Below, in pieces: positions 44,059 to 59,159 of a stretch of DNA of 64,000 nt (position 1 is the first letter of the stretch; each line of letters begins with the position of its first letter). The translations under genes were made by a program, and so were the position numbers. The stretch spans positions 129,037-193,036 of the forward strand of contig CAYYEX010000001.1 in NCBI GenBank assembly GCA_964471165.1, given 5' to 3'. The stretch comes from an uncultured Candidatus Saccharibacteria bacterium. GTDB lineage: Bacteria > Patescibacteriota > Minisyncoccia > Phycocordibacterales > UBA2100. The notes beneath the pieces were generated by a model. It was given only the letters and a program-made list of their open reading frames with translations. It made no database searches and was not told the DNA's origin.

Positions 44059-44134
44059 TGTCGGCCCTCCCAATAAACCATATATCCCACGTCATCGTAC
44101 CGATAAATCCGCCTCGTGCGCAAGCGCAACCACC

Positions 44135-47100: not shown

Positions 47101-47149
47101 AGTTCAAGGTGGCGTAGTACTTTGCGAACTGCTGGTTGGAGTTCTGCAT
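44135..47149 (-). CDS. UvrD/PcrA-family helicase fused to C-terminal PD-(D/E)XK nuclease with Cys cluster (AddA/RecB-like single-chain helicase-nuclease)
   Basis: start at ATG 47149 (MQNSNQQF); Walker A AGPGTGKTH, helicase motifs, C-terminal DYKTGK...CKKDDCRECA. Confidence 0.85.
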   Translation of the reverse strand: MQNSNQQFAKYYATLNSAQKKAVDTIEGPVMVVAGPGTGKTHILTLRIANILTKTDTPPDGVLALTFTEAGVDAMKQRLLKMIGPTAYKVGIYTFHGFCNDVIHSHPEYFPRIISSVALTDIESILYIREALTELPLEKLKPFGDPYFYVQSVKSAISTLKREHKTPHDVLTGTEMRLEKLANDPDSVHQKGAHKGKIKGPVVTEIDRLKKEHELGLVYEWYETKLAAMRKFDFDDMISEVVRALEVDESFRLAVQEKYLYILADEHQDANGSQNKLLELLTSFHDSPNLFIVGDEKQAIFRFQGASLDSFSYFQKHFPKATLIALVDSYRSGSVLLDAAHSLMRESIPEERHPKLKSKLEEPSHAVLEQRAFTSEEMEINWVVAAVAEHIGRGVAPGDIAIMYRTNADARSISRALSLRGILHALDSKSTIFHDHTITQLVTYLRLCMHIGSDEFLAHALHFPWSGVSSHDTYKILLFGQKHRIPYVDVIASRAHLKDARVYDTAAVTSFAESLLRLAKIAHEESARDFFDRVLHESGFLSYVLKRTDAVSVLNAVRGLAQTLETLSSTKTLYTGQDFVNDIGLYEEYGIEIEPDTQPKERSNAVHLVTAHRSKGLEYEYVFIVHARDAHWGNRQARNNLPLSTLATVQDTDVEDERRLFYVALTRAKQYVSVSYGVASATRSRESTITQFMLEVDPQLVQIIDTEAFEATVAPQDAFAIMPLRSDSMTDKEFLRDAFLEQGISATALNNYLECPWKYFYRSLVRVPEKQTQSSMYGNALHNALRLFRELSASTHTYQPLPVLLELLKTSIDRQGFAPALYEDAHKKGIRALTDWHERNERGYEFTAMCEKKFEVYLPLEANVIPQVLLRGLVDVIEFSGDGTTRVIDYKTGKHKSRNEIEGGTKNADGNYKRQLDFYCILLELSQMQRPDKLSLEFIEPNPAGKTVVHDFEYDEAAVAELKRTIARVAGEIYSLSFWDAGCKKDDCRECALRALTEVTPISS

Positions 47150-47166
47150 AAGAGCGCCAGTATATC

Positions 47167-47210
47167 CCCGAGTTACACCGGGGTCACGCCCGGCAAGGCA
47201 TTGCCGAGGC
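47167..47210 (+). repeat. dispersed REP/MITE-like element, short form (copy b)
   Basis: ccccgagttacaccggggtcacgcccggcaaggcattgccgaggc. Confidence 0.6.
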
Positions 47211-47247
47211 AAGACAAAGCCGCGCCTGCGGTTTGTTTTGTTGGCCG

Positions 47248-47772
47248 ATGCAAGATAGCATCAGCCGTGTGAAAGCGTTTTCCGGCAGAATATTCAAAAT
47301 CGGCATCAATCCATGCCTCGTTCCCCCAGAGTCCGTCATGGAGGCGCTGTTTCAAGACGCGGGTAAACGCTCGGGAGCTATCCCCGTGTGCGGCACCCTC
47401 GAGGGCGCGCCCTACGTGCAAACACTCGTAAAGTTCTCTGGTAAATGGCGCTTCTATATCAACGGTCCCATGCTGAAAGCTTCGGGACTCCAAAACGGAG
47501 ATATGGCGCACGTTGCAATCGAATACGATGCTCGCTCGCGCACGGTGCCTCTTGGTGTGCAGCTCAAGGAAGCCTTGGCAAAAGACAAAGCCGCAAAAAA
47601 AGCATACGACGCACTTGCCCCACACCGCCAAAAAGAAATCAACCGCTATTTAACCGGTCTCAAGACCGAAGCGACATTGCAGCGAAACATTGTGGTCGTA
47701 GTCGACTCGCTTGCGGGCCGCGGCACCACCGGGCTCCATGCGCTCCTGCGCGTTGCGCGCACCGACGACTAG
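47248..47772 (+). CDS. DUF1905/YdeI-like protein
   Basis: start at MQDSISRVKAF; N-terminal DUF1905-like beta region (IFKIGINPCLVPP) and C-terminal YdeI-like helical region. Confidence 0.55.
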   Translation: MQDSISRVKAFSGRIFKIGINPCLVPPESVMEALFQDAGKRSGAIPVCGTLEGAPYVQTLVKFSGKWRFYINGPMLKASGLQNGDMAHVAIEYDARSRTVPLGVQLKEALAKDKAAKKAYDALAPHRQKEINRYLTGLKTEATLQRNIVVVVDSLAGRGTTGLHALLRVARTDD

Positions 47773-47861
47773 TCTGTCCACAGACGCGGCCATTTTTCGC
47801 AACAATATATCGTTTAGGATAAGAAACGGTCCGACGGACCATCCATCAATAACAAAAAGGA

Positions 47862-48086
47862 GTGTATTCCGTAATGTTATCGGCAATAAAAAAGCCTACG
47901 CCTTCCCTCTCGTTTCTCTTCTACCAAACCCTCATCGACTTCTCGTCATCACGATGGCTCCCTGTGTCGTTGCGTATTCATTGGGGAGTGTCGTTCACGC
48001 TCTCGTTCTTTGCGGGGGTGGCACTCATTCTCTGGGTGCTTTTGGGACTGAAGAAGAAACTGCAGGAAAGAAAGGCGTCCGTCTGA
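47862..48086 (+). CDS. small membrane protein
   Basis: 74 aa; AAGGAG RBS 9 nt upstream; 2 TM; followed by terminator. Confidence 0.45.
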   Translation: MYSVMLSAIKKPTPSLSFLFYQTLIDFSSSRWLPVSLRIHWGVSFTLSFFAGVALILWVLLGLKKKLQERKASV

Positions 48087-48100
48087 GCTCTTGATTACTC

Positions 48101-48145
48101 GGTCGCCCCTCGCCATTCACTTGAGGGGCGACCGTTTTGCTTTTG
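48101..48145. terminator. bidirectional intrinsic terminator
   Basis: GGTCGCCCCTC-11 nt-GAGGGGCGACC plus T-run. Confidence 0.65.
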
Positions 48146-48149
48146 AACA

Positions 48150-48569
48150 TTATCGTCGTCCCATAAAGTAGCCGAGAAACGCTGTAATTGAGACAATTAT
48201 GATCACAGCCAGGTAGGATTTTAAATCAGTGAGCGCCTCCAACCAATCCGGAGTCATAAGAAATAGTGAATATATGAATCCGAGCAGTGCACCTGACGCG
48301 AGCCCCGAAGGATGTTCTGGTCGCGAGGCACGCGCAAAGTAAAAAGAAGTGAGTCCGTACCAGATACACAGTATTCCGAGGAATAACCACGTGGAAAAGA
48401 AAACTCCAACATCGACACTGATACTCATTCGGACGACATCAGAAGAAAGTGCATAGGAGATACCAGAGAAAAGCATGATGACTTTCAATAAAAGCCATGT
48501 GCTCGCAAAAAGCAGTGCTCCCGCGATGAGCCCGCGTTTGTATTCAAACCCTTTGAGGGTCTCAATCAT
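48150..48569 (-). CDS. hypothetical membrane protein (4 TM)
   Basis: 139-aa hydrophobic ORF. Confidence 0.4.
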   Translation of the reverse strand: MIETLKGFEYKRGLIAGALLFASTWLLLKVIMLFSGISYALSSDVVRMSISVDVGVFFSTWLFLGILCIWYGLTSFYFARASRPEHPSGLASGALLGFIYSLFLMTPDWLEALTDLKSYLAVIIIVSITAFLGYFMGRR

Positions 48570-48651
48570 ATGTAGTGATTATGACATGGGCCGATTTGCA
48601 TTTGAGGCTTGCAACTGTAATATCTCGTGAGTCGACTTCGGAGAACGCTCC

Positions 48652-49068
48652 ATGTATGAAGCCATGTATCTTGCCTTGTTGTTCGTCGCGGCCTGCGGCG
48701 CCGGCATGTTCGTACAAGCAGTGGTCGAAGAAGGCCATTTTCGATCTGCGATCGTGATCTACGCGATACTACTCATATTCCTTGCCTCTCAGATCTCGCC
48801 GCTCGTCGTCGAGATATTCGAATGGTTGGGGATTATGCAGTCATTCAGTTCGCCCGTGCGCAGGTTCTTCGGCAGTATCCTCGCAAGCGTACCGATCTTG
48901 CTGATCGTTGTAGGTGCAATGATCCTATCTGCCACGCCGACGGATCTCATCGACCCACGTTCACGTGCAGAGATTGCGCGAGCGCGACGGAAGGACTTAC
49001 TCGCGCAGAAGCCTCGCCGAGGCACCTATCGAAGACGGAATCACTTCGTCGAACATACCAATCGGTAG
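48652..49068 (+). CDS. hypothetical membrane protein (3-4 TM) with basic C-terminus
   Basis: 138-aa ORF, terminator downstream. Confidence 0.4.
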   Translation: MYEAMYLALLFVAACGAGMFVQAVVEEGHFRSAIVIYAILLIFLASQISPLVVEIFEWLGIMQSFSSPVRRFFGSILASVPILLIVVGAMILSATPTDLIDPRSRAEIARARRKDLLAQKPRRGTYRRRNHFVEHTNR

Positions 49069-49092
49069 CGCCATACAACATAGTGAACATCT

Positions 49093-49124
49093 CGGCTGGA
49101 CTTGCTCCAGCCGTTTGTTTTTTA
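49093..49124 (+). terminator. intrinsic terminator
   Basis: CGGCTGGA-CTTGC-TCCAGCCG plus T-run. Confidence 0.7.
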
Positions 49125-49241
49125 CATGGAGGGATGTGCTTACCTCGTAATTTGACAAGCGTTCCAAAGACACGCATTGTCTTGGCAGCATCCAAATCAG
49201 GCATGCTCTATCGATAACCCCGACCTGAAAGGAGCTCACCT

Positions 49242-49853
49242 ATGGGCGAGCAACCGAGCGACGAAGACCGCGTGCGTGCGTTGTTGCAGCACGAGATGAA
49301 GATGTCTGCTCCCAACGAGATGCAGCTTTCCGAAGCAATCGCCGACCTTATCATTGGCAACCCGGCAAGTGCGCACGACTTGTTGCTGTTGATTGAAAGC
49401 TACATCGATCGCAGTTTCACCGTCTATACATGGCGGTTCATGCCCGCGGTTCTGATTGGCTTACTCAGCGCTGCAATCTGGTGCGAAAAGAACTCGAAAA
49501 CGTATAACTGCGAGTTCGCCGCCGCACTGCCCGTGACACTCGGGACACTTCTGCGTCGCTACATCGATCGTGCTCCAAACCAGCCCGACAAGACGCACGA
49601 CCTATGCGGCGAGGGGGCCATCGGCAGGTTCAGCGACTTGCTCACGCTGTATACCTCGACCGGCAACCCGGATGAGAACACGCGGCGCATCGCGTTCATG
49701 CTCGGACGTGCAGCGAAATACGGGTCGCATGTTCCCGATTGCACTGCGCCGATTGTCAGTGTAGTGGCGCAGCGCGCACTCACCTTCCTGTGCGCCGGTG
49801 CGCAGATTCGCGCGGTTAACGCTCAGCTCAACGCAGAGCGCATCATTCCGTGA
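49242..49853 (+). CDS. hypothetical soluble protein (first gene of cassette-like array)
   Basis: 203 aa; TTGACA-like box and AAGGAG RBS upstream. Confidence 0.45.
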   Translation: MGEQPSDEDRVRALLQHEMKMSAPNEMQLSEAIADLIIGNPASAHDLLLLIESYIDRSFTVYTWRFMPAVLIGLLSAAIWCEKNSKTYNCEFAAALPVTLGTLLRRYIDRAPNQPDKTHDLCGEGAIGRFSDLLTLYTSTGNPDENTRRIAFMLGRAAKYGSHVPDCTAPIVSVVAQRALTFLCAGAQIRAVNAQLNAERIIP

Positions 49854-49864
49854 GCGAAACAGGC

Positions 49865-50014
49865 ATGCTGCTCGATACAGCCCAGCTATACTTCGCCGGA
49901 TTCGGCAACGCCGAGACAGAAGTGATCTTTAAATCCGCAGCCATTACGGCGATAATCTGCGCGATTCTCAGTGCGGCAGCCGTCCTCTACATTTTCAGGA
50001 AGAGGAAAAAGTAG
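49865..50014 (+). CDS. small TM peptide (49 aa)
   Basis: below the ORF-track cutoff; 11 nt after upstream stop; hydrophobic helix plus KRKK tail; followed by array terminator hairpin. Confidence 0.3.
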   Translation: MLLDTAQLYFAGFGNAETEVIFKSAAITAIICAILSAAAVLYIFRKRKK

Positions 50015-50029
50015 TGCGCGACAGGCTAA

Positions 50030-50055
50030 GGCCGGCATCCAGCGAGGTGCCGGCC
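50030..50055 (+). repeat. array terminator-hairpin module GGCCGGCATCCAGCGAGGTGCCGGCC (copy 1)
   Basis: 8-bp GC stem, 10-nt loop, directly after a stop codon; identical copies at 52205 and 55269. Confidence 0.7.
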
Positions 50056-50170
50056 TGATTTGATGCCTCGGCCCCAAGAATATCTGGGGTCGCAGCCCGG
50101 GAAAGCATTCCCGAGGCGCGTCAATGCAAAGCAGGGCTGAATCCCGGCGACAGCTCGGGAAATTCTCACT
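50056..50170 (-). repeat. dispersed REP/MITE-like element, long form, inverted orientation (copy c)
   Basis: tgatttgatgcctcgg...cagggctgaatcccggcg; reverse complement aligns with copy f at 63178. Confidence 0.55.
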
Positions 50171-50176
50171 CTCCCC

Positions 50177-50192
50177 CTATTCGCGCGAATTA
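50177..50192. promoter_or_regulatory. perfect 16-bp palindrome CTATTCGCGCGAATAG (ATTCGCGCGAAT box 1), overlapping stop codon of 50177..50983
   Basis: seen directly; identical 24-nt context ctattcgcgcgaattagagaatag recurs at 55909. Confidence 0.5.
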
Positions 50193-50983
50193 GAGAATAG
50201 CTTGCGCAGCGCAGGCTCATGCATGACCGCGTGACTGTGACCAAAAATTATAAAAATATTGTCGTGAGTGTGTAGCTCCCGAGCAATATCCTCTACCGCA
50301 AAACAATCACGTATATGCGAAGTAACGCGCCCGACTCTATTCAATGCGGTTTCAGTAATATCTGCGCGTGGGATTGGGTCGACGTATTCGCTCACCATTT
50401 CATCGCTCTCCACGTCAACAGGGTGTCCCACAATCGCTTCTCCAATACGCAGTGCATTCTCATATGAATAGTCGTATCCCCGCCACTCGGTGCTGCGTTT
50501 AAATCTATCGAGAAATGGCTGCGCGTATTCACGAAAGCTATCACCGTTCCCTCGGCGATAGTACTGCGGTAGTACGCGAAAAAGCTCGTATGCAAATATC
50601 TCGTCTGGGGTATACCCTTTTGCAATCAGTTGTTCGTGAACAAACTCGTCACTCGGCTCCGGTGAATTGCACTCGATACCTTTTTCGAGTGCAAGCCGCA
50701 CGGCGAATAATGGTTCGCCTCCTTGCTCTATTGTTTCGCTCTCCGACATTTCGCTCAGCCACACGTGGAACGACTCACGCCGCTCGCGCAACTTTTCTAC
50801 TCCCTCGACGAGCACGAGGTCCGGAGCTGCCTTTTCAAGCGTGCTGCGTATCTGTGCAAACAGAGTATTGTTTGGGTCGCTTACGTGGTCAGAGCCAAAA
50901 TACGTGATTTTCTTTCCGTTGCGTGTGAGTTCAAAAATGTATGGCGATTCATGTCGGATACCGCTGTATTCCTGTGCGTTCAT
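50177..50983 (-). CDS. hypothetical protein (weak TraB/GumN-like N-terminal pattern)
   Basis: start at ATG 50983 (MNAQEYSG); ITYFGSDHV resembles the GxxH box of TraB/GumN family, not reliable. Confidence 0.4.
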   Translation of the reverse strand: MNAQEYSGIRHESPYIFELTRNGKKITYFGSDHVSDPNNTLFAQIRSTLEKAAPDLVLVEGVEKLRERRESFHVWLSEMSESETIEQGGEPLFAVRLALEKGIECNSPEPSDEFVHEQLIAKGYTPDEIFAYELFRVLPQYYRRGNGDSFREYAQPFLDRFKRSTEWRGYDYSYENALRIGEAIVGHPVDVESDEMVSEYVDPIPRADITETALNRVGRVTSHIRDCFAVEDIARELHTHDNIFIIFGHSHAVMHEPALRKLFSNSRE

Positions 50984-51090
50984 AACGTTGTCACCGAGCT
51001 GGGGCGCTTTATGCTCGGGCTGACGCAATACTCTTTTGTCTGGCGAGTCTATTCCCACAACAGGATTATAGCCCCCAGATTTGTTTGTGC

Positions 51091-51123
51091 TGGCATATCC
51101 AGATTTTCAGGCGTAGCATATGG
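51091..51123 (+). promoter_or_regulatory. array promoter-like box (P-box copy 1)
   Basis: tggcatatccagattttcaggcgtagcat; same box upstream of four other array genes. Confidence 0.5.
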
Positions 51124-51150
51124 TTTGGAATTCTCAGTGGAGCGAAAGAA

Positions 51151-51354
51151 ATGGCACAGCCACGCACATTCAACGTCTTCTCACGCAACGTGTGGATTAT
51201 CGCCGGCGGCGGCGTCGGAGGCGGAGTAATTGGTTGGGCGCTTTCCTCATACTACGGAGTGCCAAACATCGACCACGGGCCGTTCACGGCTCTGGGCATG
51301 ATCATTGCGAGTGTCCTTACGGCACTTTTGGTGTTCCGACGCAAGCGCTCCTGA
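51151..51354 (+). CDS. small 2-TM membrane protein (67 aa)
   Basis: GGAG RBS; Gly-rich helix AGGGVGGGVIGWAL; terminator downstream. Confidence 0.45.
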   Translation: MAQPRTFNVFSRNVWIIAGGGVGGGVIGWALSSYYGVPNIDHGPFTALGMIIASVLTALLVFRRKRS

Positions 51355-51357
51355 CGA

Positions 51358-51377
51358 ACGAGCAAGCTCGTTTTCCT
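51358..51377 (+). terminator. intrinsic terminator
   Basis: AACGAGC-AA-GCTCGTT plus TTTT. Confidence 0.55.
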
Positions 51378-51448
51378 ACGGCCGGAATCGCGAGATTCCG
51401 GCACCTTCGTTTTATACATCTGGGTCTTGTTTCGCTCCCGCGTGTATT

Positions 51449-51478
51449 TCAACTCCAGCAATTAATCCAATTGGATTA
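51449..51478 (+). repeat. partial copy of ~100-nt array repeat (R100) containing ATCCAATTGGAT
   Basis: tcaactccagcaattaatccaattggatta vs tcaactccagtaatccatccaattggatga in full copies. Confidence 0.5.
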
Positions 51479-51692
51479 TTTATAGGAGTGACTCCTTGGA
51501 TGCGGATTTCGATTCTCTCGCCAACTCGTACGTATCTCTAAAAGGTTAAACCTTGGAGCACTTTATTGACCCACGCGTATCCGTGACGCAGTATTCACAA
51601 GTTCGGGCTGGATGCTTGAACGAGTGTATCTACCTAGCTACGCGGGATGCGTAGCGGATACTGTGCGGCGGGATGCCGCAAGGAGGTACGTA

Positions 51693-52181
51693 ATGAAAGC
51701 CAAAGCCAAGGCCCAAGGATTTCGGGCTGCATTCCCTTGGATTGATCAACTCTTTCCCGGGGAGAACTACAACTTCGCGACCGCGTCGGTTGATGCCGAC
51801 ATTCTCGATCGTGTGCCCAGCTTCAACTATCCTGAGCTCACGAAGAACCGCATCACCCTGGTCAGTCGGCACGGAACGCTGATGACCGACGTTGCGGGCG
51901 TGAGTGGAATTGTCTCTGCACTCACGATCAACTTCGGTGGCTTCTGCCGGCAGAAGGAGGAGTTGGTCAGCGAAGCACTCGAACGGCTCGGCGATGCGGT
52001 GTCGGACGTTGGATTCATCGTGGTAATCACCCCGCGGGGTCGCCACAAACAGACGAACTTCACCATCTACCACACGCGCGAGAACACCTCTATCGCAGAG
52101 GTTTGGCGGCGCTTGGCGGCAAAAGAAGAGGCGGACGTCCGCAAACAAATACAAGCGGAGATGGAGCCACTTGCGGCCTAA
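51693..52181 (+). CDS. hypothetical protein
   Basis: start at ATG with AAGGAGG RBS (MKAKAKAQGF); followed by array terminator hairpin. Confidence 0.5.
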   Translation: MKAKAKAQGFRAAFPWIDQLFPGENYNFATASVDADILDRVPSFNYPELTKNRITLVSRHGTLMTDVAGVSGIVSALTINFGGFCRQKEELVSEALERLGDAVSDVGFIVVITPRGRHKQTNFTIYHTRENTSIAEVWRRLAAKEEADVRKQIQAEMEPLAA

Positions 52182-52204
52182 CACGGCCCCACATGTTCAT
52201 TCGA

Positions 52205-52230
52205 GGCCGGCATCCAGCGAGGTGCCGGCC
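52205..52230 (+). repeat. array terminator-hairpin module (copy 2)
   Basis: GGCCGGCATCCAGCGAGGTGCCGGCC then GATTCGTTTTG. Confidence 0.7.
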
Positions 52231-52330
52231 GATTCGTTTTGGACGTATCACTCTCTGATATATATCAACTCCAGTAATCCATCCAATTGGATGAACCACA
52301 GCAGTAGGCTATCTCGAGGATAGTTAATTT
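52231..52330 (+). repeat. ~100-nt array repeat R100 (copy A) with 12-bp palindrome ATCCAATTGGAT
   Basis: about 90% identical over ~100 nt to 55295..55392. Confidence 0.65.
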
Positions 52331-52400
52331 TTGATATCAGAGAAGAGGGCGACGATGCGATCTTTGAGAATGCCGCGAACTATTTCGGGCTTGAATTTAT
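52322..52400 (-). pseudogene. 3'-terminal fragment (about 20 codons plus stop) of a second CDA-fold deaminase paralog
   Basis: 52328-52400 about 90% identical to 53291-53370 (3' end of the full deaminase gene); encodes ...FKPEIVRGILKDRIVALFSDIKN* vs ...FNPEIVRGILKDRIVALFADIKK*; similarity ends abruptly upstream. Confidence 0.55.
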
Positions 52401-52462
52401 ATTCAAAGGCCCGACCTTAGAATATATGTAGAGTTGCAAATTAGGACACGTTTCTGTAGTGT

Positions 52463-53233
52463 ATGCAACAGCTGAATGGAAATGTGGAAGGACTCACCGT
52501 GTCCCAGCAACAATACGACTCTTTCGCAAGCAACTATGCAAAAGCCGCCGCCGGCAACGGCGTGAACGATTACTGCAACTACCCGAGCCTGTATGCCGCA
52601 GCTGGAGATTTCGTGGGCAAGAAAGTGCTCGATCTCGCCACAGGGAACGGCAAAGTTGCTCGCGCAGTCGTTGAACTGGGCGCTGCAGAAGTGATCGCGG
52701 TTGACGAGTCGCAGAAGATGATCGATATCGCACGGGCGCAAACTCCGTCGAGCTCGCCGATACGGTACTACACGGAAACCGTGGGCAAACTTGGACACAT
52801 GGACAAGTTCGACGTCGTCATCGCCGGCTGGCTCCTGCACTACGCGAAAAGCGAAGTGTCGCTGCGCGCAATGTGCCACGACATCATGCTCAATTTGAAA
52901 CCGGGCGGCGTTTTCGCGGCAATTAATCCGAATCCGATGAACCCGTTCGGAGGCACTCGTACGCTCGGCACCATGGTGAGCCCACGGCGAGTCCCCTGCG
53001 ACAACGGCGGCGAGATGATCATTACCCTCTACGGCGAGACCACGCAAACGTTCTCGGCGTATCACTGGGAGATGGAAACCTACAAGAAAGCGTTCCGTCT
53101 CAGCGGTCTCGATCTGGAGGTAATTCAGCCGCAGCCAACGGCGCTCGGACTCCAGCGGCTCGGTCCGCTGTTCTGGGACGAAGCGCGCCGGCATCGCATC
53201 ACCTCGATCTTTCGTGCCCGCCGCAGATCGTAA
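52463..53233 (+). CDS. class I SAM-dependent methyltransferase
   Basis: 256 aa; motif I VLDLATGNG, acidic motif II AVDES, motif III-like DVVIAGW. Confidence 0.8.
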   Translation: MQQLNGNVEGLTVSQQQYDSFASNYAKAAAGNGVNDYCNYPSLYAAAGDFVGKKVLDLATGNGKVARAVVELGAAEVIAVDESQKMIDIARAQTPSSSPIRYYTETVGKLGHMDKFDVVIAGWLLHYAKSEVSLRAMCHDIMLNLKPGGVFAAINPNPMNPFGGTRTLGTMVSPRRVPCDNGGEMIITLYGETTQTFSAYHWEMETYKKAFRLSGLDLEVIQPQPTALGLQRLGPLFWDEARRHRITSIFRARRRS

Positions 53234-53258
53234 TGCTGCGCCGAAGGTAATAGCAAGA

Positions 53259-53292
53259 AGGCCGGAGTTCCTCCATGGAACCCGGCTTTTAC
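53259..53292. terminator. bidirectional terminator between convergent methyltransferase and deaminase
   Basis: GCCGGAGTTCC-TCCA-TGGAACCCGGC plus TTTT. Confidence 0.6.
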
Positions 53293-53738
53293 TTTTTGAT
53301 ATCAGCAAAGAGAGCGACGATGCGGTCTTTGAGAATGCCGCGAACAATCTCGGGATTGAATCCGGAATCCTCTGCGAGGTGTTCGATTCGAAATTGTCTT
53401 TCGCGGAGCAAGTCCGGTAAATCACTGCGTGATGCACCGATTACCACTCGCGGAATCTTTGCTTGGAAAATTGCTGCCGCGCACATGAGGCACGGTTCGT
53501 TGGAGCAGTAGATTACACAGTCACTCAGATTATTTGTGCCGAGCACTTTGCAGGCATCGTTTACCGAATGGAGCTCCGCATGAGCAAGCACCGTCTTTTC
53601 TTTTGACTCGCGGCAACGATTTTGCGCAATCACCTCATCCCCGCGAACTATCACAGCCCCAAACGGCCACTCGCCGTCAGCCTTGGCCTCCACGGCCTGC
53701 GCGATGGCCATTTCCATGTATTTTTCGTCCATATCCAT
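53289..53738 (-). CDS. CMP/dCMP-type (CDA-fold) zinc deaminase, TadA/guanine-deaminase-like
   Basis: 149 aa; zinc motifs HAELH and SNEPCLMCAAAI. Confidence 0.8.
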   Translation of the reverse strand: MDMDEKYMEMAIAQAVEAKADGEWPFGAVIVRGDEVIAQNRCRESKEKTVLAHAELHSVNDACKVLGTNNLSDCVIYCSNEPCLMCAAAIFQAKIPRVVIGASRSDLPDLLRERQFRIEHLAEDSGFNPEIVRGILKDRIVALFADIKK

Positions 53739-53763
53739 ATGAGTATTCTAACTCACATCCCCC

Positions 53764-53792
53764 TAGCGAATCTCAATTTTCGGGCGTAGGAT
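53764..53792 (+). promoter_or_regulatory. array promoter-like box (P-box copy 2)
   Basis: tagcgaatctcaattttcgggcgtaggat. Confidence 0.5.
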
Positions 53793-53846
53793 TTGTGCGG
53801 GACCGTGCCCGCCCCGGACACACAACAACTCAGATGGAGCTTGCCC

Positions 53847-54053
53847 ATGAGAACCGGTTTCGCAGTGCTTCTCACTGCTGCGCTCTCGATTGCCCTCGCA
53901 CTCGCTCTTCAGCAGACGATTCTGTTTGCCGAGGCAGAGCTCGGAAAACAATGGGCAATGCCCGCGATGCTGGTTGTCGGCATCCCGGCGAGCTACCCGA
54001 TTCACCTGTTCCTCGAATGGGCGTCGCGATTCTCAGCTCCGCGGCTTGCATGA
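53847..54053 (+). CDS. small 2-TM membrane protein (68 aa)
   Basis: internal ATG with GGAG RBS (MRTGFAVLLTAAL). Confidence 0.45.
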   Translation: MRTGFAVLLTAALSIALALALQQTILFAEAELGKQWAMPAMLVVGIPASYPIHLFLEWASRFSAPRLA

Positions 54054-54084
54054 GCTAGGCCAGAAATGGCATCAGATTTTTCCC

Positions 54085-54110
54085 GGCCGGCATCCAGCGA
54101 GATGCCGGCC
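54085..54110 (+). repeat. array terminator-hairpin module (copy 3, GGCCGGCATCCAGCGAGATGCCGGCC)
   Basis: one loop substitution relative to copies 1, 2 and 4. Confidence 0.7.
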
Positions 54111-54203
54111 TTATTGCATACCCTAGCCTTTCGAAACAATACGGAGTAACCTTTTTGCAGGGAATGTTTGGAAGTCACACGTCCACAGCGGGAGCGAACC
54201 AAC

Positions 54204-54548
54204 ATGGAAGCAGCCTTATCACGCGAAGCAATGATCGGTGAGATCGCCGGATTCTATGGAACCAAATTGGGGCCAGCTGTAGCTCAACGGCTCGCAGATT
54301 TGCCCGACGATCGGGTTTCCAATGCGCACGCACTGATGCAGCGACGTCGCAAGGCGCATGACATGATTGCCGCGTGCATGGCGGCCTACGCCCTGTTCGC
54401 CGACGTGCTCGAAGAGCACTACATGGGACAGAGCATTGCGATTAGCGCGATGACTGGCGAATTCCGCATAGGCTACACCGACGCAGAACTCGCCGCGTGG
54501 AAACTGCCCGAGGGCGACGGCGTGTTCATGATCAAAATCGGACAATAG
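54204..54548 (+). CDS. hypothetical protein (114 aa)
   Basis: internal ATG with GGGAG RBS (MEAALSREAMIGE); degenerate P-box-like sequence upstream (54121..54150). Confidence 0.45.
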   Translation: MEAALSREAMIGEIAGFYGTKLGPAVAQRLADLPDDRVSNAHALMQRRRKAHDMIAACMAAYALFADVLEEHYMGQSIAISAMTGEFRIGYTDAELAAWKLPEGDGVFMIKIGQ

Positions 54549-54573
54549 CCAATTTCGGCGGGAGTACTCACCA

Positions 54574-54750
54574 ATGCCCCACGATGTTATTCGACCCGAC
54601 TGGTCGTATTGGCAATGGCCACCGACCAAAGCGGATTGGGACAAGCTGCGCAGACAAGAGGCCGAGTACCAGGCTCGGCGCGCCGTCGACCCGCTCAAGG
54701 GCGGTCCAATCGAGCAGTTCCTTGCATGGCTCCTCTGTGTGCCATAGCTG
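54574..54750 (+). CDS. small Trp-rich protein (58 aa), possibly coupled to upstream gene
   Basis: below ORF-track cutoff; GGGAG RBS; 25 nt after upstream stop; followed by variant terminator hairpin. Confidence 0.3.
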
Positions 54751-54761
54751 ACCGACATTCA

Positions 54762-54787
54762 GGCCGGGTCCCCCGTTGGACCCGGCC
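54762..54787 (+). repeat. variant array terminator hairpin GGCCGGGTCCCCCGTTGGACCCGGCC
   Basis: 10-bp GC stem; followed by same gatttgatgcctcggc flank as copy 1. Confidence 0.6.
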
Positions 54788-54826
54788 GATTTGATGCCTC
54801 GGCTATGCCTAGCCGGGCTGAATCCC
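54788..54826 (-). repeat. dispersed REP/MITE-like element, short form, inverted orientation (copy d)
   Basis: gatttgatgcctcggctatgcctagccgggctgaatccc; reverse complement of copy e core. Confidence 0.55.
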
Positions 54827-54851
54827 TTTAGTGACGTTTACCCACTATTCG

Positions 54852-54869
54852 CCCATTCGCGCGAATGGG
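54852..54869. promoter_or_regulatory. perfect 18-bp palindrome CCCATTCGCGCGAATGGG (ATTCGCGCGAAT box 2)
   Basis: seen directly; identical copy at 55984. Confidence 0.5.
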
Positions 54870-54877
54870 TCCAATAG

Positions 54878-54906
54878 TGGCGAATCTCTATTTTCAGGCG
54901 TAGGAT
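54878..54906 (+). promoter_or_regulatory. array promoter-like box (P-box copy 3)
   Basis: tggcgaatctctattttcaggcgtaggat. Confidence 0.5.
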
Positions 54907-54930
54907 GGCCGCGGCTTAGGGAGGAACACG

Positions 54931-55242
54931 ATGAATATCAAAGCTGTCTTACTCGCATCGCAGAAGACATTGATCGCAGTTGAACGCCACTACCCCGGTA
55001 TCGAACCGCGCCAGTGGCCGAAGGGACGCCCTGCAAACCTCGAGTGTGACCGTGACCTGTTGGTCGCCGACGCGGTTTGGACGCTGCACAGGATTCCCGC
55101 CATGATCGATGCGAAAGATTCTGACAAGGCTATGCATTCGCTCGGCACCTGTCAGGCAGTTTTGTGGCTCATGAGTGTCATCGAACAATCGGAGCTTGAG
55201 TCGATCAATCGCACGGCCGTCGCGGAATCCGCGGCAGCGTAA
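54931..55242 (+). CDS. hypothetical soluble protein (103 aa)
   Basis: GGGAGG RBS; followed by array terminator hairpin. Confidence 0.45.
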   Translation: MNIKAVLLASQKTLIAVERHYPGIEPRQWPKGRPANLECDRDLLVADAVWTLHRIPAMIDAKDSDKAMHSLGTCQAVLWLMSVIEQSELESINRTAVAESAAA

Positions 55243-55268
55243 CGGAGACCTCTATGTTCACTGATCGA

Positions 55269-55294
55269 GGCCGGCATCCAGCGAGGTGCCGGCC
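55269..55294 (+). repeat. array terminator-hairpin module (copy 4)
   Basis: GGCCGGCATCCAGCGAGGTGCCGGCC then GATTCGTTTTG. Confidence 0.7.
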
Positions 55295-55392
55295 GATTCG
55301 TTTTGTATTTTGTGTCTATCATTCTCTGATATATCAACTCCAGTAATCCATCCAATTGGATGAGTTACAGCAGTGAACTATCTGGAGAATAT
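55295..55392 (+). repeat. ~100-nt array repeat R100 (copy B) with ATCCAATTGGAT
   Basis: aligns with 52231..52330. Confidence 0.65.
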
Positions 55393-55419
55393 TTTTAATT
55401 CCTCGGCTTTTTTGTTCAC

Positions 55420-55448
55420 TAGCGAATACTTGTTTTCGAGCGTAGGAT
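55420..55448 (+). promoter_or_regulatory. array promoter-like box (P-box copy 4)
   Basis: tagcgaatacttgttttcgagcgtaggat. Confidence 0.5.
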
Positions 55449-55487
55449 TTGTGCGGGAATGAACGGCAACAACGGAAGGATTCCGCC

Positions 55488-55871
55488 ATGAACGTCGAGA
55501 CGATGATTATGTTTGTGTGCTTCGCTGCGATAGCGCTCGGTATCACGGTGGGCGGATATCGCACGGCAACGGTTACCCGCGCGCGAATCGATGCCATCAA
55601 AGCCAACGCGGTAATCACTGCGCTGATGGCGGCGCTCATGTGGTGGTACTGGAGCCCCGAAATCAACGAGCTCGCGTTCGGCTTCCGCAACAACTTCCTC
55701 GGCTACACGAGCGCCTTCGTGCTGTGCATGCTGACCATTCCGTTGCCCGTTTTCTTTATCGCGGCAGCAATTGCTCGTTTCAGCGCGTGGGCCGAGTCTG
55801 ACCAAGCCAAGGCAAATCGAAAAGCTGGGCAGCGGCGGTTCTTCGCGGAGCCCTCCCCAATTCCGCGTTAA
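55488..55871 (+). CDS. polytopic small membrane protein (127 aa, 3-4 TM)
   Basis: internal ATG with GGAAGGA RBS (MNVETMIMFV). Confidence 0.5.
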   Translation: MNVETMIMFVCFAAIALGITVGGYRTATVTRARIDAIKANAVITALMAALMWWYWSPEINELAFGFRNNFLGYTSAFVLCMLTIPLPVFFIAAAIARFSAWAESDQAKANRKAGQRRFFAEPSPIPR

Positions 55872-55908
55872 CCTCTGAGCGCGTCGCGCCATCACTCAGA
55901 CCCATTCG

Positions 55909-55924
55909 CCTATTCGCGCGAATT
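55909..55924. promoter_or_regulatory. perfect 16-bp palindrome CTATTCGCGCGAATAG (ATTCGCGCGAAT box 3)
   Basis: identical to 50177..50192 including aattagagaatag tail. Confidence 0.5.
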
Positions 55925-55937
55925 AGAGAATAGCCCC

Positions 55938-55963
55938 GGCCGGCATCCAGCGCGATGCCGGCC
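55938..55963 (+). repeat. array terminator-hairpin module (copy 5, GGCCGGCATCCAGCGCGATGCCGGCC)
   Basis: two loop substitutions. Confidence 0.65.
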
Positions 55964-55983
55964 TGATTTAATACTCACTATTC

Positions 55984-56001
55984 ACCCATTCGCGCGAATG
56001 G
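55984..56001. promoter_or_regulatory. perfect 18-bp palindrome CCCATTCGCGCGAATGGG (ATTCGCGCGAAT box 4)
   Basis: identical to 54852..54869 with shared actattc(g/a) left flank. Confidence 0.5.
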
Positions 56002-56346
56002 GTCCAGAGAGACTATTCGCCTATTCGCGTGCGACCAATGTTTCTTAGCGGTACTCCGCTTTAGAAACATGAAGTACTCTTGTGGTGAATTAGAGAATAG
56101 TTGAATACACACAAGGTGTGCGGTCGCACAGGTTGTGTGTATGTGTCACTTCAAGGTTCGACCTTGAAGTAGGTCTGGTGCGGGCCCCACACCGCCGCGC
56201 AAATCGTTCTTTCCGCGCAGGCCACCTGCAACCGTCCGGGCAATCGCCCGGACTTCTGCTTTATGTCCCCATTTTCTTTCTCTAACGAATGTCTTCCGCA
56301 CAAGGTCCGACCTTGTCATCGCTTGGACTGCGTCCTGATCTAATAC

Positions 56347-56397
56347 CTCCCGAGATACTCCGGGATTCAGCCCGGCTAGGCATAGCCGAGGCATCAC
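56347..56397 (+). repeat. dispersed REP/MITE-like element, short form (copy e)
   Basis: cctcccgagatactccgggattcagcccggctaggcatagccgaggcatca. Confidence 0.6.
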
Positions 56398-56426
56398 TAG
56401 CGAATCTACATTTTCGGGCGTAGCAT
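56398..56426 (+). promoter_or_regulatory. array promoter-like box (P-box copy 5)
   Basis: tagcgaatctacattttcgggcgtagcat, 8 nt before the ATG. Confidence 0.5.
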
Positions 56427-56434
56427 CAGGCTGT

Positions 56435-57421
56435 ATGTACGTGATAGTTGACACAAACATAATTCACAAGGATTACTATTTGTCATCAAAAAAATTCGTT
56501 GCACTATTTGAATACCTAAGAAAAACTCCCCACAAATTGATTATTCCTCAGATCGTTGAGAATGAACTAACGGAACATTTTAGACGTGATGTGGTTAGTT
56601 TACGTGAACTGCAAGGTTCGTTCATTCACGACACAGACAAGCTATTGAAGACAGCGATATCACGCAAAGATATCGATGAAGACGCCGAGTTAAAGAAATA
56701 TATAAAGTTTCTCGAAAAGTTCTACGAAAACAACCCAGTAGAACGAGCACTGCACAATTCGGATTTCTTTCTTGAAATTGTTGAGCGTGCAGTGCGTCGG
56801 CGTGCGCCGTTCGTCAAAGGCGAAAAACCTGACTATGGATTTAAAGATGCAGTACTTTGGCACCATGTTAGAGAAATTGCGCATAAAGGCCACGAGGCGT
56901 TGGCCTTTATTAGTGCCAACACATCTCAATTTGCAAATGCTTCTAAAGACGACTTAAATCCTGAACTCAGAGCAGAGTTGTCCCGCTCCAACACTACATT
57001 TAAATACTTCACAACACTTGAATCTTTTCTGGAGAAGTATGGAGCCCCATTACAAGGTATTACCCACGAGGCCGTTAAAAAAGCACTCGACTTGAAGGCC
57101 CTGGAAATGAAAGAAACAGGCGCATTCAAGGAGGAATTCCTCAAAGAGATATTTGAGTACGCGCTATACAAATCGGTGCAACAAATAGAGTTTGAGAGAC
57201 TCGAATTAAGCAATTTCTTCGTTTCAGCAATGGACAAGAAGTCATACTTCCTTGAAGCAGTGGGTAGCGCATTCGCATGGGTTCTTATATGGGATCCCAC
57301 AACCGAGCCGTACCCTGATGAACTCCGTACAACATTTAAAGCCACCTTGAGGTTTGATCGGAAAACATCCGAACTCGTTGCGGACTCAATATCGATCGAC
57401 AAGTACGATATCCCATTTTAG
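56435..57421 (+). CDS. PIN-like (DUF4935-type) domain protein, AT-rich relative to surroundings
   Basis: 328 aa; N-terminal MYVIVDTNII...(D-x-N PIN start) with extended helical C-terminal region; codon usage visibly A/T-rich. Confidence 0.55.
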   Translation: MYVIVDTNIIHKDYYLSSKKFVALFEYLRKTPHKLIIPQIVENELTEHFRRDVVSLRELQGSFIHDTDKLLKTAISRKDIDEDAELKKYIKFLEKFYENNPVERALHNSDFFLEIVERAVRRRAPFVKGEKPDYGFKDAVLWHHVREIAHKGHEALAFISANTSQFANASKDDLNPELRAELSRSNTTFKYFTTLESFLEKYGAPLQGITHEAVKKALDLKALEMKETGAFKEEFLKEIFEYALYKSVQQIEFERLELSNFFVSAMDKKSYFLEAVGSAFAWVLIWDPTTEPYPDELRTTFKATLRFDRKTSELVADSISIDKYDIPF

Positions 57422-57600
57422 ACAAGTGTTCTTGCCTACATCAAAAAAGTATTCTGAGTCTTTGCAAAACATGAGACTCTTCCGTCTTTTTTTGATAAAA
57501 TCAAGCAATATGACGATTGTTTCAAGGACATCGTTGACATCGATCTCGTCCGCAATGCTCGCCGTGCAAATTTTTGTCGCTTCTGCATTGACCGCGTGTT

Positions 57601-57642
57601 CATTAGCCTGTACGCTGGGACTTCCCAGCGTACAGGCTAATG
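57601..57642. repeat. perfect 19-20-bp inverted repeat CATTAGCCTGTACGCTGGGA...TCCCAGCGTACAGGCTAATG
   Basis: seen directly; 4-nt loop; immediately upstream of an intrinsic terminator. Confidence 0.7.
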
Positions 57643-57651
57643 AAGTGAGTA

Positions 57652-57686
57652 AATAACAAAACCGTGCTTCTTGCGCGGTTTTTTGG
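57652..57686 (+). terminator. intrinsic terminator after PIN-like gene
   Basis: AACCGTGC-TTCTT-GCGCGGTT plus TTTTTT. Confidence 0.65.
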
Positions 57687-57811
57687 ACTGAGATATTTGG
57701 ATGCAGTTCTAGGCGCGGGCGAGGCGGGTTCCGAGCCGTACTGAATGTACGGTGAGGAGCACGGCGACGCACGCAACAACGAAATGCGCCAAATAGTTCA
57801 GTCCATCATAT

Positions 57812-57846
57812 TAAGAAAAAGTCCCCTTCCGGGGACCTTTTCTTAA
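57812..57846 (-). terminator. rpoD terminator (bidirectional)
   Basis: AAAAAGTCCCC-TTCC-GGGGACTTTTT. Confidence 0.75.
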
Positions 57847-59159
57847 TATGATCGGAGCTGTTTTGCTCGTTCGTGGAATCGGATTCGTTCGAGAGCTTTG
57901 GCCTCAATCTGGCGAATACGTTCGCGGGTTACGCCGAACTCTCGGCCCACCTCTTCGAGTGTGTAGCAGATGCCGTCGTCTGTGAGCCCGTTTCGCATTT
58001 CGAGGATTTTGCGCTCCTTTGGTGAGAGCTCGTCGAGAATGCCCATCATCTGCTCGGAGAGGATTCGGCGCGATGCGTCCTGGTCTGGAGCGGCGATTGT
58101 GTCGTCGGCGATGAACGAGCCCAATGTTGAGCGCTCGTCGTCATCTTCACCCACTGGAGATTCGAGTGATACGGTGTCCTGGTTGATTTTCTGAATGGTG
58201 TAAATTTTGTCGACTTCAATGCCCATTTCTGCGGCAATTTCTTCTGGCAGTGGGTCGCGGCCCAAGTGTTGCGAGAGTTCGCGCACCTTCTGCTTGTACT
58301 TGGCGATGGTTTCCACCATGTGCACCGGAATACGAATCGTTCGAGACTGGTCGGCGAGTGCGCGGGTGATAGCCTGGCGAATCCACCAAGTAGCGTATGT
58401 AGAAAACTTAAAGCCCTTGGAGTAGTCGAACTTGTCTACGGCCTTAAAGAGGCCGAGGTTCCCTTCCTGAATCAGGTCGAGGAGGGTCAAATCTGGAGAG
58501 CGGTTTACGTATTTCTTGGCGATAGATACCACCAAGCGGAGGTTGGAGCGTGCCAAAATCGAGCGAGCTTCGTCGTCGCCCACGAGAATGCGCTTTGCGA
58601 GGTCTTTCTCCTGTTCACCGTTGAGCAGTGGGTACTGACCGATTTCTCGGAGGTACATCTGCACAGAGTCGTAGTTGGAATCAGAGCGGCGGTTCTGGAG
58701 CTTCTTGGAAGCGAGCACAGAATCTGCCGAAGTGTCTTCGAGCATGCCGCCGCCTTCGAGCACATCGATGCCGGCCGTCGAAAATCGCTCATACATTTCT
58801 TCGAGCAACGTCATGTTGTCTTCGATTGTTGGGAACTCGCGCAAAATCTCGTCAAACGTTACGTAGCCGCGCTCTTTCCCGAGCCCAATGAGCGCCTGCA
58901 CCTTGTCGGCAGACTTTCCTTTCATTTCAAACTTGGCGCCGGCGAGCACCTGCTTTTTTACCTTGCCGCCCTTAATTTCAACCTTCTGCATTGGCTGTTG
59001 CTTGGCAGGAGTGCGGCCCGCGCGCGAAGTGGCGCTGGTGCGGCGTGGTTTTGCAGGCGAGCGTTTGACCGCCGTCTTTTTGGTCTTCGTTGCGCCAGCG
59101 GCACGATTTTGCTTGCCTGCCTTCTTCACTTTCTTTGCAACTTTTTTTGCTTTTGCCAT
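57843..59159 (-). CDS. rpoD: RNA polymerase sigma-70 factor RpoD with Lys/Ala-rich N-terminal tail
   Basis: regions 1.2-4 present ([44 protein letters not shown]). Confidence 0.95.

Follow-up and report, generated by a model that had tools for sequence, protein, structure and literature searches.

An island of small genes beside rpoD

The 64-kb window analyzed here (the whole stretch of DNA under study, to which all coordinates refer unless a relative is named) is part of a 308-kb metagenome contig from the European Nucleotide Archive (ENA), and its RpoD relatives place the host in Candidatus Kaiserbacteria, uncultivated and ultra-small bacteria of the candidate phyla radiation (CPR; Patescibacteria). 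In the slot between ydeI/addA and rpoD, downstream of rpoD and convergent with it, we found an island of 17 mostly small genes whose intergenic DNA consists of a few repeated modules. These modules are conserved across species while the genes between them turn over, and islands of this type occur throughout a genus-level clade of Candidatus Kaiserbacteria. We consider the locus to be probably a lineage-specific hypervariable island of insulated units, in which repeated terminator-promoter junctions would act as homology for recombination.

The island is flanked by rpoD, ydeI/OmdA, addA, and an S41 peptidase gene, and its setting is chromosomal, with rpoB, rpoC, dnaG, rpoD, and tRNA synthetase genes present. 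No adjacent tRNA gene, integrase, or att site was found at the island. Cumulative GC skew is monotonic over the whole window, and a replication origin or terminus was rejected as a reading on this ground. Two contigs from independent Logan assemblies (L084 and L085) match 41693-52230 and 47817-52230 at 100% identity, both ending exactly at 52230, and a second contig has the same rpoD and g11 with unchanged neighbors. The island and its boundaries comprise the following features.

47233-47772, ydeI/OmdA, far-side boundary of the island together with the gene for an AddA-type helicase-nuclease (addA)
49242-50014, + strand, g01 (203 aa) and overlapping g02 (54 aa, one predicted transmembrane segment, TM), from open reading frames (ORFs), gene calls, and TM prediction
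50030-50055, + strand, putative terminator hairpin H1, a consensus copy
50062-50147, + strand, long element of the repetitive extragenic palindromic (REP) kind, REP84, 86% identical to positions 8420-8503 of the related locus L003
50177-51058, - strand, g03 (293 aa, no family), in reverse orientation
51091-51119, + strand, P-box 1 (putative promoter box), the most divergent copy
51151-51354, + strand, g04 (67 aa, one TM), from ORF, gene call, and TM prediction
51381-51402, + strand, hairpin variant GCCGGAATCGCGAGATTCCGGC, in the form typical of the clade and with 23 nt identical to L098 1453-1475
51444-51509, + strand, partial divergent copy of the ~100-nt repeat
51693-52181, + strand, g05 (162 aa, no family)
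52205-52325, + strand, hairpin H2 (52205-52230), then copy 1 of the ~100-nt repeat
52324-52396, - strand, 3' fragment of a deaminase gene (relic), a 73-nt direct repeat with 53289-53361
52463-53233, + strand, class I S-adenosylmethionine (SAM)-dependent methyltransferase
53289-53738, - strand, TadA/CDA-type zinc deaminase (149 aa), placed back to back with P-box 2 and with a predicted leaderless TAGAAT promoter
53764-53792, + strand, P-box 2
53847-54053, + strand, g08 (68 aa, TM)
54085-54150, + strand, hairpin H3 (54085-54110), 12-nt linker TTATTGCATACC, and degenerate P-box (54123-54150)
54204-54747, + strand, g09 (114 aa) and g10 (57 aa; homolog in L091)
54762-54826, + strand, hairpin variant (54762-54787), then short REP (54792-54826)
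54845-54906, + strand, extended palindrome CTATTCGCCCATTCGCGCGAATGGGTCCAATAG abutting P-box 3 (54878-54906)
54931-55242, + strand, g11 (103 aa), of a clade-restricted family
55269-55394, + strand, hairpin H4 (55269-55294), then copy 2 of the ~100-nt repeat
55420-55448, + strand, P-box 4
55488-55871, + strand, g12 (127 aa, two TM)
55902-56010, + strand, gene-less run of palindrome (55902-55933), hairpin H5 (55938-55963), and palindrome (55978-56010)
56012-56101, + strand, 90-nt predicted structured element, with palindrome arms as outer stem and a 57-nt hairpin as core
56362-56426, + strand, REP in - orientation (56362-56396) abutting P-box 5 (56398-56426)
56435-57421, + strand, PIN_12-domain protein (328 aa) in the rpoD-proximal cargo slot, a region of 46% GC
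57658-57684, + strand, predicted canonical intrinsic terminator closing the island
57843-59159, - strand, rpoD (gene for the main sigma factor), the neighbor on the other side, with dnaG and rpoBC farther out

Repeated modules of the island

A preliminary description of this DNA had reported five types of noncoding module, and all five are present at the places it gave, in numbers far beyond chance. Five copies of the 26-nt hairpin GGCCGGCATCCAGCGAGGTGCCGGCC are found when up to two mismatches are allowed (at 50030, 52205, 54085, 55269, and 55938; none expected from shuffled sequence), and two further variants are present at 51381 and 54762. Each copy lies 14 to 66 nt downstream of a stop codon, with a predicted stability of -17 to -24 kcal/mol (z scores of -3.7 to -4.8). 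The 29-nt P-box, TAGCGAATnnnnATTTTCRGGCGTAGSAT, is found five times (51091, 53764, 54878, 55420, and 56398; none expected), besides a sixth, degenerate copy at 54123. The palindrome core ATTCGCGCGAAT is present in four copies (50179, 54855, 55912, and 55988), against 0.02 expected. The ~100-nt repeat has two full copies (52231-52325 and 55295-55394) and the partial one at 51444-51509. The REP-like element appears at 54792-54826 (+) and 56362-56396 (-), complementary at 35 of 35 positions, and in its long form at 50062-50147.

Module searches in this genome covered 79 kb: the 64-kb window plus ~9 kb to its left and ~5 kb to its right. Over this distance the modules are found only in 50-56.5 kb, save for one REP copy at 63.2 kb; hairpin, P-box, palindrome, and 100-nt repeat have no copy in the rest of the window nor in the ~14 kb beyond it. 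The four REP copies fall within 14 kb, one of them outside the island, and none occurs in the other ~65 kb searched. The outlying copy sits in a second cluster, one of small unannotated genes, at 61.0-63.1 kb between rpoC and dnaG, which also differs between relatives and has neither P-boxes nor GGCCGG hairpins.

Several smaller repeats accompany the main modules. The two perfect 35-nt inverted REP copies flank a 1.5-kb segment with g11 and g12 and could permit its inversion, although no invertase for it was seen. Mini-hairpins with a core AAGG-N5-CCTT and variable outer stems occur at 51542, 52406, 56153, and 56302, all four in intergenic DNA of the island, and seven copies are found in the island of L002. 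Downstream of the PIN gene, an inverted repeat at 57599-57644 has perfect arms of 22 bp around a 2-nt loop; it falls inside a doubtful 48-aa ORF, shortly before the terminator at 57658-57684.

Promoters, terminators, and the composite junction

The GGCCGG hairpin has the properties expected of an intrinsic terminator. Among 55 distinct copies, stem positions 9 and 10, which the search had left unconstrained, are paired in 80 to 91% through several pair types, and the tails in relatives have a mean of 6 T per 10 nt. Since the stem is thus kept through varied pair types and followed by T-rich tails, we read the hairpin as a putative intrinsic terminator. The version prevalent in the window (CATCC...GGTG) has been homogenized, with an identity of 0.88 within the genome versus 0.70 to 0.75 to other genomes, which points to recent spread or gene conversion in this genome; the copy at 51381 retains the clade-typical AATC...GATT.

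Two promoter classes can be predicted. TATACT is enriched in intergenic DNA (11 of 16 sites), and housekeeping genes are preceded by GG-TATACT, or a G-rich stretch plus TATACT, 6 to 12 nt before the start codon (for instance at 4431, 18179, 22208, 27055 on the - strand, 33651, and 47159 on the - strand). This short distance indicates leaderless housekeeping transcripts, which would be widespread in this CPR genome. The P-box, in turn, follows the layout TAGCGA-17-TAGGAT/TAGCAT and appears to be a sigma-70-type promoter distinct from the leaderless housekeeping class. Four of the five P-boxes are followed by leaders of 24 to 54 nt with GGAG/GGAGG. The start codon of the PIN gene lies 8 nt past the -10 of P-box 5, so the PIN mRNA would be leaderless. 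Housekeeping-type leaderless promoters are also predicted for g03 (GGGGGCTATAAT at 51065-51076) and for the deaminase gene. We also considered the P-box as a promoter for an extracytoplasmic function (ECF) sigma factor (GAAT...CGTA). ECF promoters need a spacing of about 16 to 17; the spacing here is 13 nt, and this candidate was rejected in favor of the sigma-70 layout TAGCGA-17-TAGGAT.

Hairpin and P-box come together in a compact junction of ~70 nt, made of the hairpin (consensus GGCCGG(A/G)ATCC-loop-GGAT(T/C)CCGGCC), a ~12-nt T-rich linker TnATTTnATACC, and the P-box (consensus CTAGCGAAT-N4-ATTTT-N2-GGCGTAGSAT). This composite is seen at 54085-54150 of the window, at 2751-2818 of L098, and also in L003 and L092. 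Most junctions of the window are enlarged by REP, palindrome, or 100-nt elements between hairpin and P-box.

Bracketing of every gene by the same modules, as the preliminary description had it, holds only for g08, g11, and g12, which have both a P-box and a consensus hairpin. The remaining genes are equipped less completely: g04 has a P-box and a variant hairpin, the PIN gene only a P-box, and g01-g02 (which has no P-box and ends at H1), g05, and g09-g10 only a hairpin, while g03, the methyltransferase, and the deaminase have neither. The gene g03 stands between P-box 1 and the palindrome at 50179-50200, which its 3' end overlaps.

Gene content

Pfam recognized only three products of the island: the class I SAM methyltransferase, the TadA/CDA-type deaminase, and the PIN_12 protein. 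TM segments are predicted for seven of the 17 proteins of the island. Pfam, NCBIfam, PHROGs, PADLOC, and PDB sequence searches returned nothing for g01, g03, g05, and g08 to g12, and g02, like g01, had no match in Pfam, PHROGs, or NCBIfam. A word-indexed homolog search with g11 gave only the self-match; an exhaustive HMMER scan of 1.84 billion representatives gave nine matches at E<=1e-3, and the family is also present in L003, L092, L098, and further relatives. The AlphaFold2 model of g11 is confident (pLDDT of 93.6) and shows a generic four-helix bundle, for which Foldseek found no match in the PDB below E=1.

On either side of the methyltransferase gene stands one copy of a 73-nt direct repeat, namely, the 3' end of the deaminase gene (53289-53361) and its relic at 52324-52396, which are 89% identical in DNA and 78% identical over 27 aa. 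This bracket is the footprint either of an insertion of the methyltransferase or of a partial duplication. A methyltransferase homolog, 37% identical, is found in the rpoD-side island of L013.

A role in defense or toxin immunity, raised in the preliminary description, is only hinted at. PADLOC detected nothing significant and no complete system in the window, where it gave weak single-domain matches to the cores of the methyltransferase (mad2, 1.6e-10) and the deaminase (dCTPase, 2.8e-6). A polymorphic toxin or orphan immunity array would be expected to begin with a large toxin gene whose C-terminal domain varies, with immunity genes behind it; no toxin-domain protein is present, the flanks being rpoD, ydeI/OmdA, addA, and the S41 peptidase gene. 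The hint comes from the rpoD-proximal slot of a sister species, L092, where a complete PADLOC candidate pair, PDC-M43A (E=3.7e-31) and PDC-M43B (E=4.7e-46), lies beside rpoD at 11352-12954 (-), immediately behind a P-box-like promoter. In another relative, L097 (RpoD 96% identical), the rpoD-side island has two tandem genes for ECF-type sigma factors at 10043-11132 (-).

Conserved modules and gene turnover between species

We compared the locus with contigs of relatives, designated by L numbers. The close clade consists of L002, L003, L090, L091, L092, L096, L097, and L098, whose RpoD proteins are 92 to 97% identical. In all of them the slot holds 4 to 20 co-oriented small genes, nearly all convergent with rpoD and nearly all without Pfam domains. 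Contents consist mostly of different clade-restricted families, and the slot is variable in every relative examined. Of the 17 genes of the window island, 13 have no homolog in the close-clade islands; the methyltransferase and the deaminase occur only in the window. Families common to several species have permuted order and kept strand (F10 F2 F7 F11 ... F12 in L090, F11 F17 F7 F2 in L092, F7 ... F12 ... F10 in L003). In distant Kaiserbacteria, the space from rpoD to the next conserved genes (PD-(D/E)XK nuclease, HSP20, PrsW) holds 1.5 to 6 kb of species-specific small genes.

The modules behave in the opposite way. When 48.1-57.7 kb was searched by BLASTN against the eight relatives, all matches fell on REP, palindrome, P-box, hairpin, and 90-nt element, all of them noncoding; two matches assigned to g03 correspond to the palindrome that its 3' end overlaps, and a 23-nt match inside g01 (E=0.007) is regarded as chance. 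At about 85 rpoD loci, GGCCGG...CCGGCC hairpins number 47 in 627 kb on the island side and 0 in 662 kb on the rpoBC-dnaG side. Five unrelated genes of the window each have a P-box in front of them, and the box also stands before other genes in L002 (five copies), L003, L092, and L098, always on the gene strand. A P-box scan of JGI metagenome contigs yielded three single matches on unrelated contigs, about the chance expectation, and no new islands. Conserved flanks around differing coding content, as claimed in the preliminary description, are borne out both in the window and across species.

Two differences between species are bounded by modules. In L003, a palindrome is followed by a promoter, a DUF167 gene, and the 90-nt element; in the window the palindrome lies directly beside the 90-nt element, and gene and promoter are absent. 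The second difference concerns the rpoD-proximal slot, which holds larger, low-GC, defense-type genes and is followed by a conserved ~120-nt element and then by the rpoD terminator. Behind the last P-box, the window carries a PIN_12 protein, L002 carries DUF3800, and L092 carries PDC-M43A/B; homology there is limited to the ~30-nt P-box, exactly behind which the replacement lies. The run without genes at 55902-56101 (palindrome, hairpin, palindrome, and 90-nt element) looks like emptied junctions. We also considered DUF167 as a gene always flanked by palindromes and discarded this idea, as no palindrome adjoins the gene in five of eight genomes and a single side is so flanked in L018.

Duplication also takes part. 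L002 carries tandem units of ~540 nt whose flanks are 92 to 96% identical and whose paralogous proteins share 44% aa identity, so that exchange of cassettes "rather than" simple tandem duplication, as first proposed, was too strong a statement even if conserved flanks and gene turnover stand. Divergence is also fast within families: the g11 proteins of relatives are 24 to 36% identical although RpoD is 92 to 97% identical.

The palindrome and two candidate structured RNAs

The palindrome is the most widely conserved module: ten relatives, with RpoD identities as low as 67%, carry it on the island side. Each of its arms consists of two 8-nt repeats, (C/T)ATTCGC(C/G). In three of the relatives an ArsR-family winged helix-turn-helix gene (88 aa) is flanked by palindromes on both sides (L015 10490-10796, L026 12350-12659, and L007 11700-12030). 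The palindrome of L015 and L026 overlaps the -35/spacer of the predicted leaderless TATAAT promoter of this gene, a second copy precedes the next promoter, and L007 has co-varied versions of the palindrome at its ArsR gene. The palindrome upstream of the ArsR-family gene is therefore likely an operator, to judge from its position. No ArsR homolog was found in the window, nor in the close clade up to 10 kb from rpoD; some palindromes of that clade are located between convergent genes, at their 3' ends (e.g., L091 9350).

The 90-nt element at 56012-56101 is 93% identical to its counterpart in L003 (4827-4911, -), 91% to that in L096 (8269-8358, +), and 78% to that in L090 (11239-11328, +), and thus occurs in both orientations relative to rpoD. 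Its consensus structure has 31 pairs, four of them with compensatory changes, and three G-U pairs are conserved in all four copies. The element could be a small RNA, a miniature inverted-repeat transposable element (MITE), or an invertible element. MITEs have terminal inverted repeats with target-site duplications and exist in multiple dispersed copies; the 90-nt element has inverted-repeat arms, a single copy was seen in each of the four genomes, and no target-site duplication was identified in them.

The ~120-nt element at 57683-57806 (+) is another candidate structured RNA, located between the rpoD/bidirectional terminator hairpin and the last terminator of the island. Conserved copies are present in L090, L002, and L040, partly conserved ones in L003 and L031, and two in L052. 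RNAalifold predicts 37 pairs, 15 of them with compensatory changes, and folding is stronger on the + strand (-23.9 kcal/mol) than on the - strand (-12.1 kcal/mol). Rfam gave no credible match even at E<=1 in 49-57.9 kb, this element included.

Origin of the variability

The explanation we favor is a hypervariable island built from insulated transcription units of one or two genes. The ancestral junction would be the ~70-nt composite of intrinsic terminator, T-rich linker, and P-box promoter, whose linker in this genome would have been enlarged by REP-like elements, the ATTCGCGCGAAT-centered palindrome, and the ~100-nt repeat. Since the junctions are repeated in direct orientation, they would offer short homology for recombination. 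Unequal crossing-over, gene conversion, and double-crossover replacement with the DNA of relatives could then duplicate, lose, reorder, or swap units one by one without a dedicated integrase. The cargo consists mainly of small proteins restricted to the clade, of which about 40% are predicted membrane proteins. We infer both recombination at the junctions as the cause of the turnover and any biological role of the cargo.

A number of observations weigh against this explanation. The hairpin tails of the window are only moderately T-rich, and the promoter and terminator activities are predicted from sequence form and position. The DUF167 difference keeps both flanking palindromic elements whole, so that a simple deletion between direct repeats does not explain it. 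One REP copy lies beyond the island, at ~63187-63266 (-) behind the rpoC terminator, and the confinement of the modules is established for 79 kb of the 308-kb contig. The contigs of the relatives are fragmentary ones from metagenome-assembled genomes (MAGs). Finally, contigs of the same species proved identical (L092 to L094, with identical RpoD, are 100% identical to one another, and L095 is 99.96% identical), so that all comparisons are between species, a distance at which rapid divergence could mimic the replacement of small genes.

This last point leads to the main rival, a regulon combined with fast divergence. Here the genes would be tandem duplicates descended from a small number of ancestral genes, in which purifying selection keeps promoter, terminator, and operator, maybe with one regulator acting on ATTCGCGCGAAT, while the small coding sequences become unrecognizable under diversifying selection and no modules are exchanged. 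Such a process certainly contributes, as the tandem paralogs of L002 and the divergence of the g11 family demonstrate, and the palindrome on the promoter of the ArsR gene in L015 and L026 looks like a classical operator. However, one slot holds the unrelated families PIN_12, DUF3800, PDC-M43, a SEC-C protein, and DUF167; the presence or absence of DUF167 is clean, gene order is permuted, and methyltransferase and deaminase occur in the window alone. Unrelated families in one slot, the DUF167 difference, and the permutations mean that fast divergence cannot account for everything. A common regulator is also hard to reconcile with the lack of an ArsR homolog near rpoD in the close clade and with palindromes placed at the 3' ends of convergent genes. 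As an explanation of the island as a whole, we therefore regard the regulon as possible but unlikely.

Less probable again is a cassette system particular to Kaiserbacteria and so far undescribed, in which the palindrome or the 90-nt form would be the recombination site and a recombinase acting in trans, or a repair enzyme of the host such as the neighboring AddA/PD-(D/E)XK nuclease, would capture, excise, and shuffle single-gene cassettes equipped with promoters. The "undescribed cassette system" of the preliminary description can be retained only in a narrow sense, because its modules are of ordinary kinds (intrinsic terminator, sigma-70-type promoter, and REP-like repeats) and a counterpart has been described in phages (PMC2839356, PMC4122927).

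We give slightly less credit still to a site-specific, integron-like system, whose recombinase, encoded elsewhere, would act on CTATTC-N-ATTCGCGCGAAT-N-GAATAG or on the 90-nt form as cassette boundaries. The restriction of the palindrome to the island side in ten relatives at family-level divergence would suit such a site, as would the single genes with palindromes on both sides (arsR in L015, L026, and L007; DUF167 in L003), the runs of palindromes without genes in the window that resemble emptied junctions, the two orientations of the 90-nt form relative to rpoD, and the common orientation of the genes. However, no tyrosine or serine recombinase, integrase, or transposase domain was found among about 40 ORFs of the window (scanned with Pfam or with precomputed Pfam assignments), and no tyrosine or serine recombinase or transposase in the islands of the relatives. 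Furthermore, there is no pairing of attC-type cores, the units have putative promoters of their own, and most unit junctions lack the palindrome. The two arms of the palindrome are each conserved but mutually unlike (L007, L015, L018, and L026), which suggests a protein-binding operator, and DUF167 stands without palindromes in five other genomes and with one on a single side in L018.

A decayed mobile element or prophage remnant, with moron-like genes persisting under their own promoters and terminators, is very improbable. Phage morons are defined by each gene having its own promoter and terminator, as here; besides, GC is lower at the PIN gene region (46% versus about 53%) and the P-box is unlike the housekeeping promoters. 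Nevertheless, PHROGs matched only the cores of methyltransferase and deaminase and none of the small ORFs, an 8-kb BLASTN query had no match among 50,697 phage records, and in an IMG/VR scan P-box and palindrome were absent and the hairpin pattern had one unrelated match. A phage origin was rejected on these three results. The lack of integrase, att site, and adjacent tRNA also counts against it, and the conservation of the island position and the module family over many species indicates vertical inheritance.

An assembly artefact (a chimeric or collapsed repeat region of the metagenome contig) can practically be dismissed: repeats do break short-read assemblies, and the Logan contigs break off precisely where a hairpin ends, but these independent assemblies and the second contig agree with the window, the repeats (26 to 130 nt) are shorter than typical reads, and the same architecture is present in eight independent MAGs.

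Similarity to known systems

The closest parallel we found are the promoter-early stem-loops (PeSLs) in the hyperplastic regions of T4-type phages (Arbiol et al. 2010, PMC2839356; Comeau et al. 2014, PMC4122927), composite terminator/promoter motifs that flank ORFans and mediate indels, replacements, and mini-circles. As in PeSLs, a putative terminator stem-loop and a sigma-70-type promoter form a repeated composite, concentrated in a variable region, which directly follows the stop codon of a small ORFan and precedes the Shine-Dalgarno sequence or start of the next. Indels and replacements between relatives map to the motifs in PeSLs; the PIN_12/DUF3800/PDC-M43 slot and DUF167 are the candidate equivalents here, at the level of species comparison only. 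The island differs in being at a fixed site beside rpoD on a cellular CPR chromosome, in having the hairpin before the promoter instead of overlapping it, and in the additional REP-like and palindromic elements of its junctions. The two systems have no sequence similarity, and recombination at the motifs and mini-circles belong to PeSLs, the junctions of the island being known from their sequence.

Integrons and superintegrons also contain co-oriented small genes, mostly of unknown function, separated by repeated hairpin-forming spacers and varying between relatives. The island is nonetheless not an integron, as the preliminary description had recognized, and three defining features fail. Neither IntI nor attI was found in the island, its flanks, and 20 further ORFs of the window, in line with the recombinase search above. 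Pairs of attC cores (RYYYAAC...GTTRRRY) number 2 in 8.8 kb versus 1.55 +/- 1.8 in shuffled sequences, none of them near a junction. Integron cassettes are promoterless and share a common promoter (Pc), whereas the island has five P-boxes and other promoter-like sites, along with seven putative terminator hairpins.

Reuse of promoters before unrelated genes has been described as putative mobile promoters (Matus-Garcia et al. 2012, PMC3488235; Nijveen et al. 2012, PMC3575422). In the island too, near-identical promoter segments lie upstream of nonhomologous genes and are common to related genomes, but they are coupled to a terminator and clustered in one island instead of being dispersed, and they are not associated with insertion sequences. 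Proteobacterial REP sequences and bacterial interspersed mosaic elements (BIMEs) resemble the intergenic DNA of the island as mosaics of short imperfect palindromes after stop codons, in both orientations and with family-wide similarity. REP/BIME copies number hundreds genome-wide and are associated with a RAYT transposase; those studied here are local as far as tested (the island plus one nearby), and the search of the window gave no RAYT/IS200-type transposase.

Flexible genomic islands and defense hot spots occupy conserved chromosomal positions. Like them, the island keeps its place between core genes and has a cargo that is species-specific, with the defense candidate PDC-M43 in one relative; it differs in having no integrase or tRNA flanks, in a cargo dominated by ORFans of 50 to 200 aa, and in the lack of a recognized defense system in the window.

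Implications

The interpretation offered in the preliminary description is partly supported: across relatives, shared families are permuted on a kept strand, and one gene difference and one replacement are bounded by modules. The genomes of CPR bacteria are tiny and streamlined, and little is known on gene novelty and the regulation of transcription in them. Here, a clade of these bacteria has a fixed hot spot where terminator-promoter junctions are kept while small genes turn over, as in the hyperplastic regions of T4-type phages. The locus yields sequence definitions that can be tested in an uncultivated lineage, namely, two putative promoter classes and one putative intrinsic terminator, together with two candidate structured RNAs. 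It is also a concrete place in which to seek surface, host-interaction, or anti-phage genes of episymbiotic CPR bacteria. In the improbable case that the cassette system with a recombinase or nuclease acting in trans is true, it would amount to an integrase-free or trans-integrase analog of integrons in the candidate phyla radiation. If, instead, the junctions themselves mediate exchange, as we think probable, the shuffling of "mobile regulatory cassettes" would extend from phages to cellular chromosomes.

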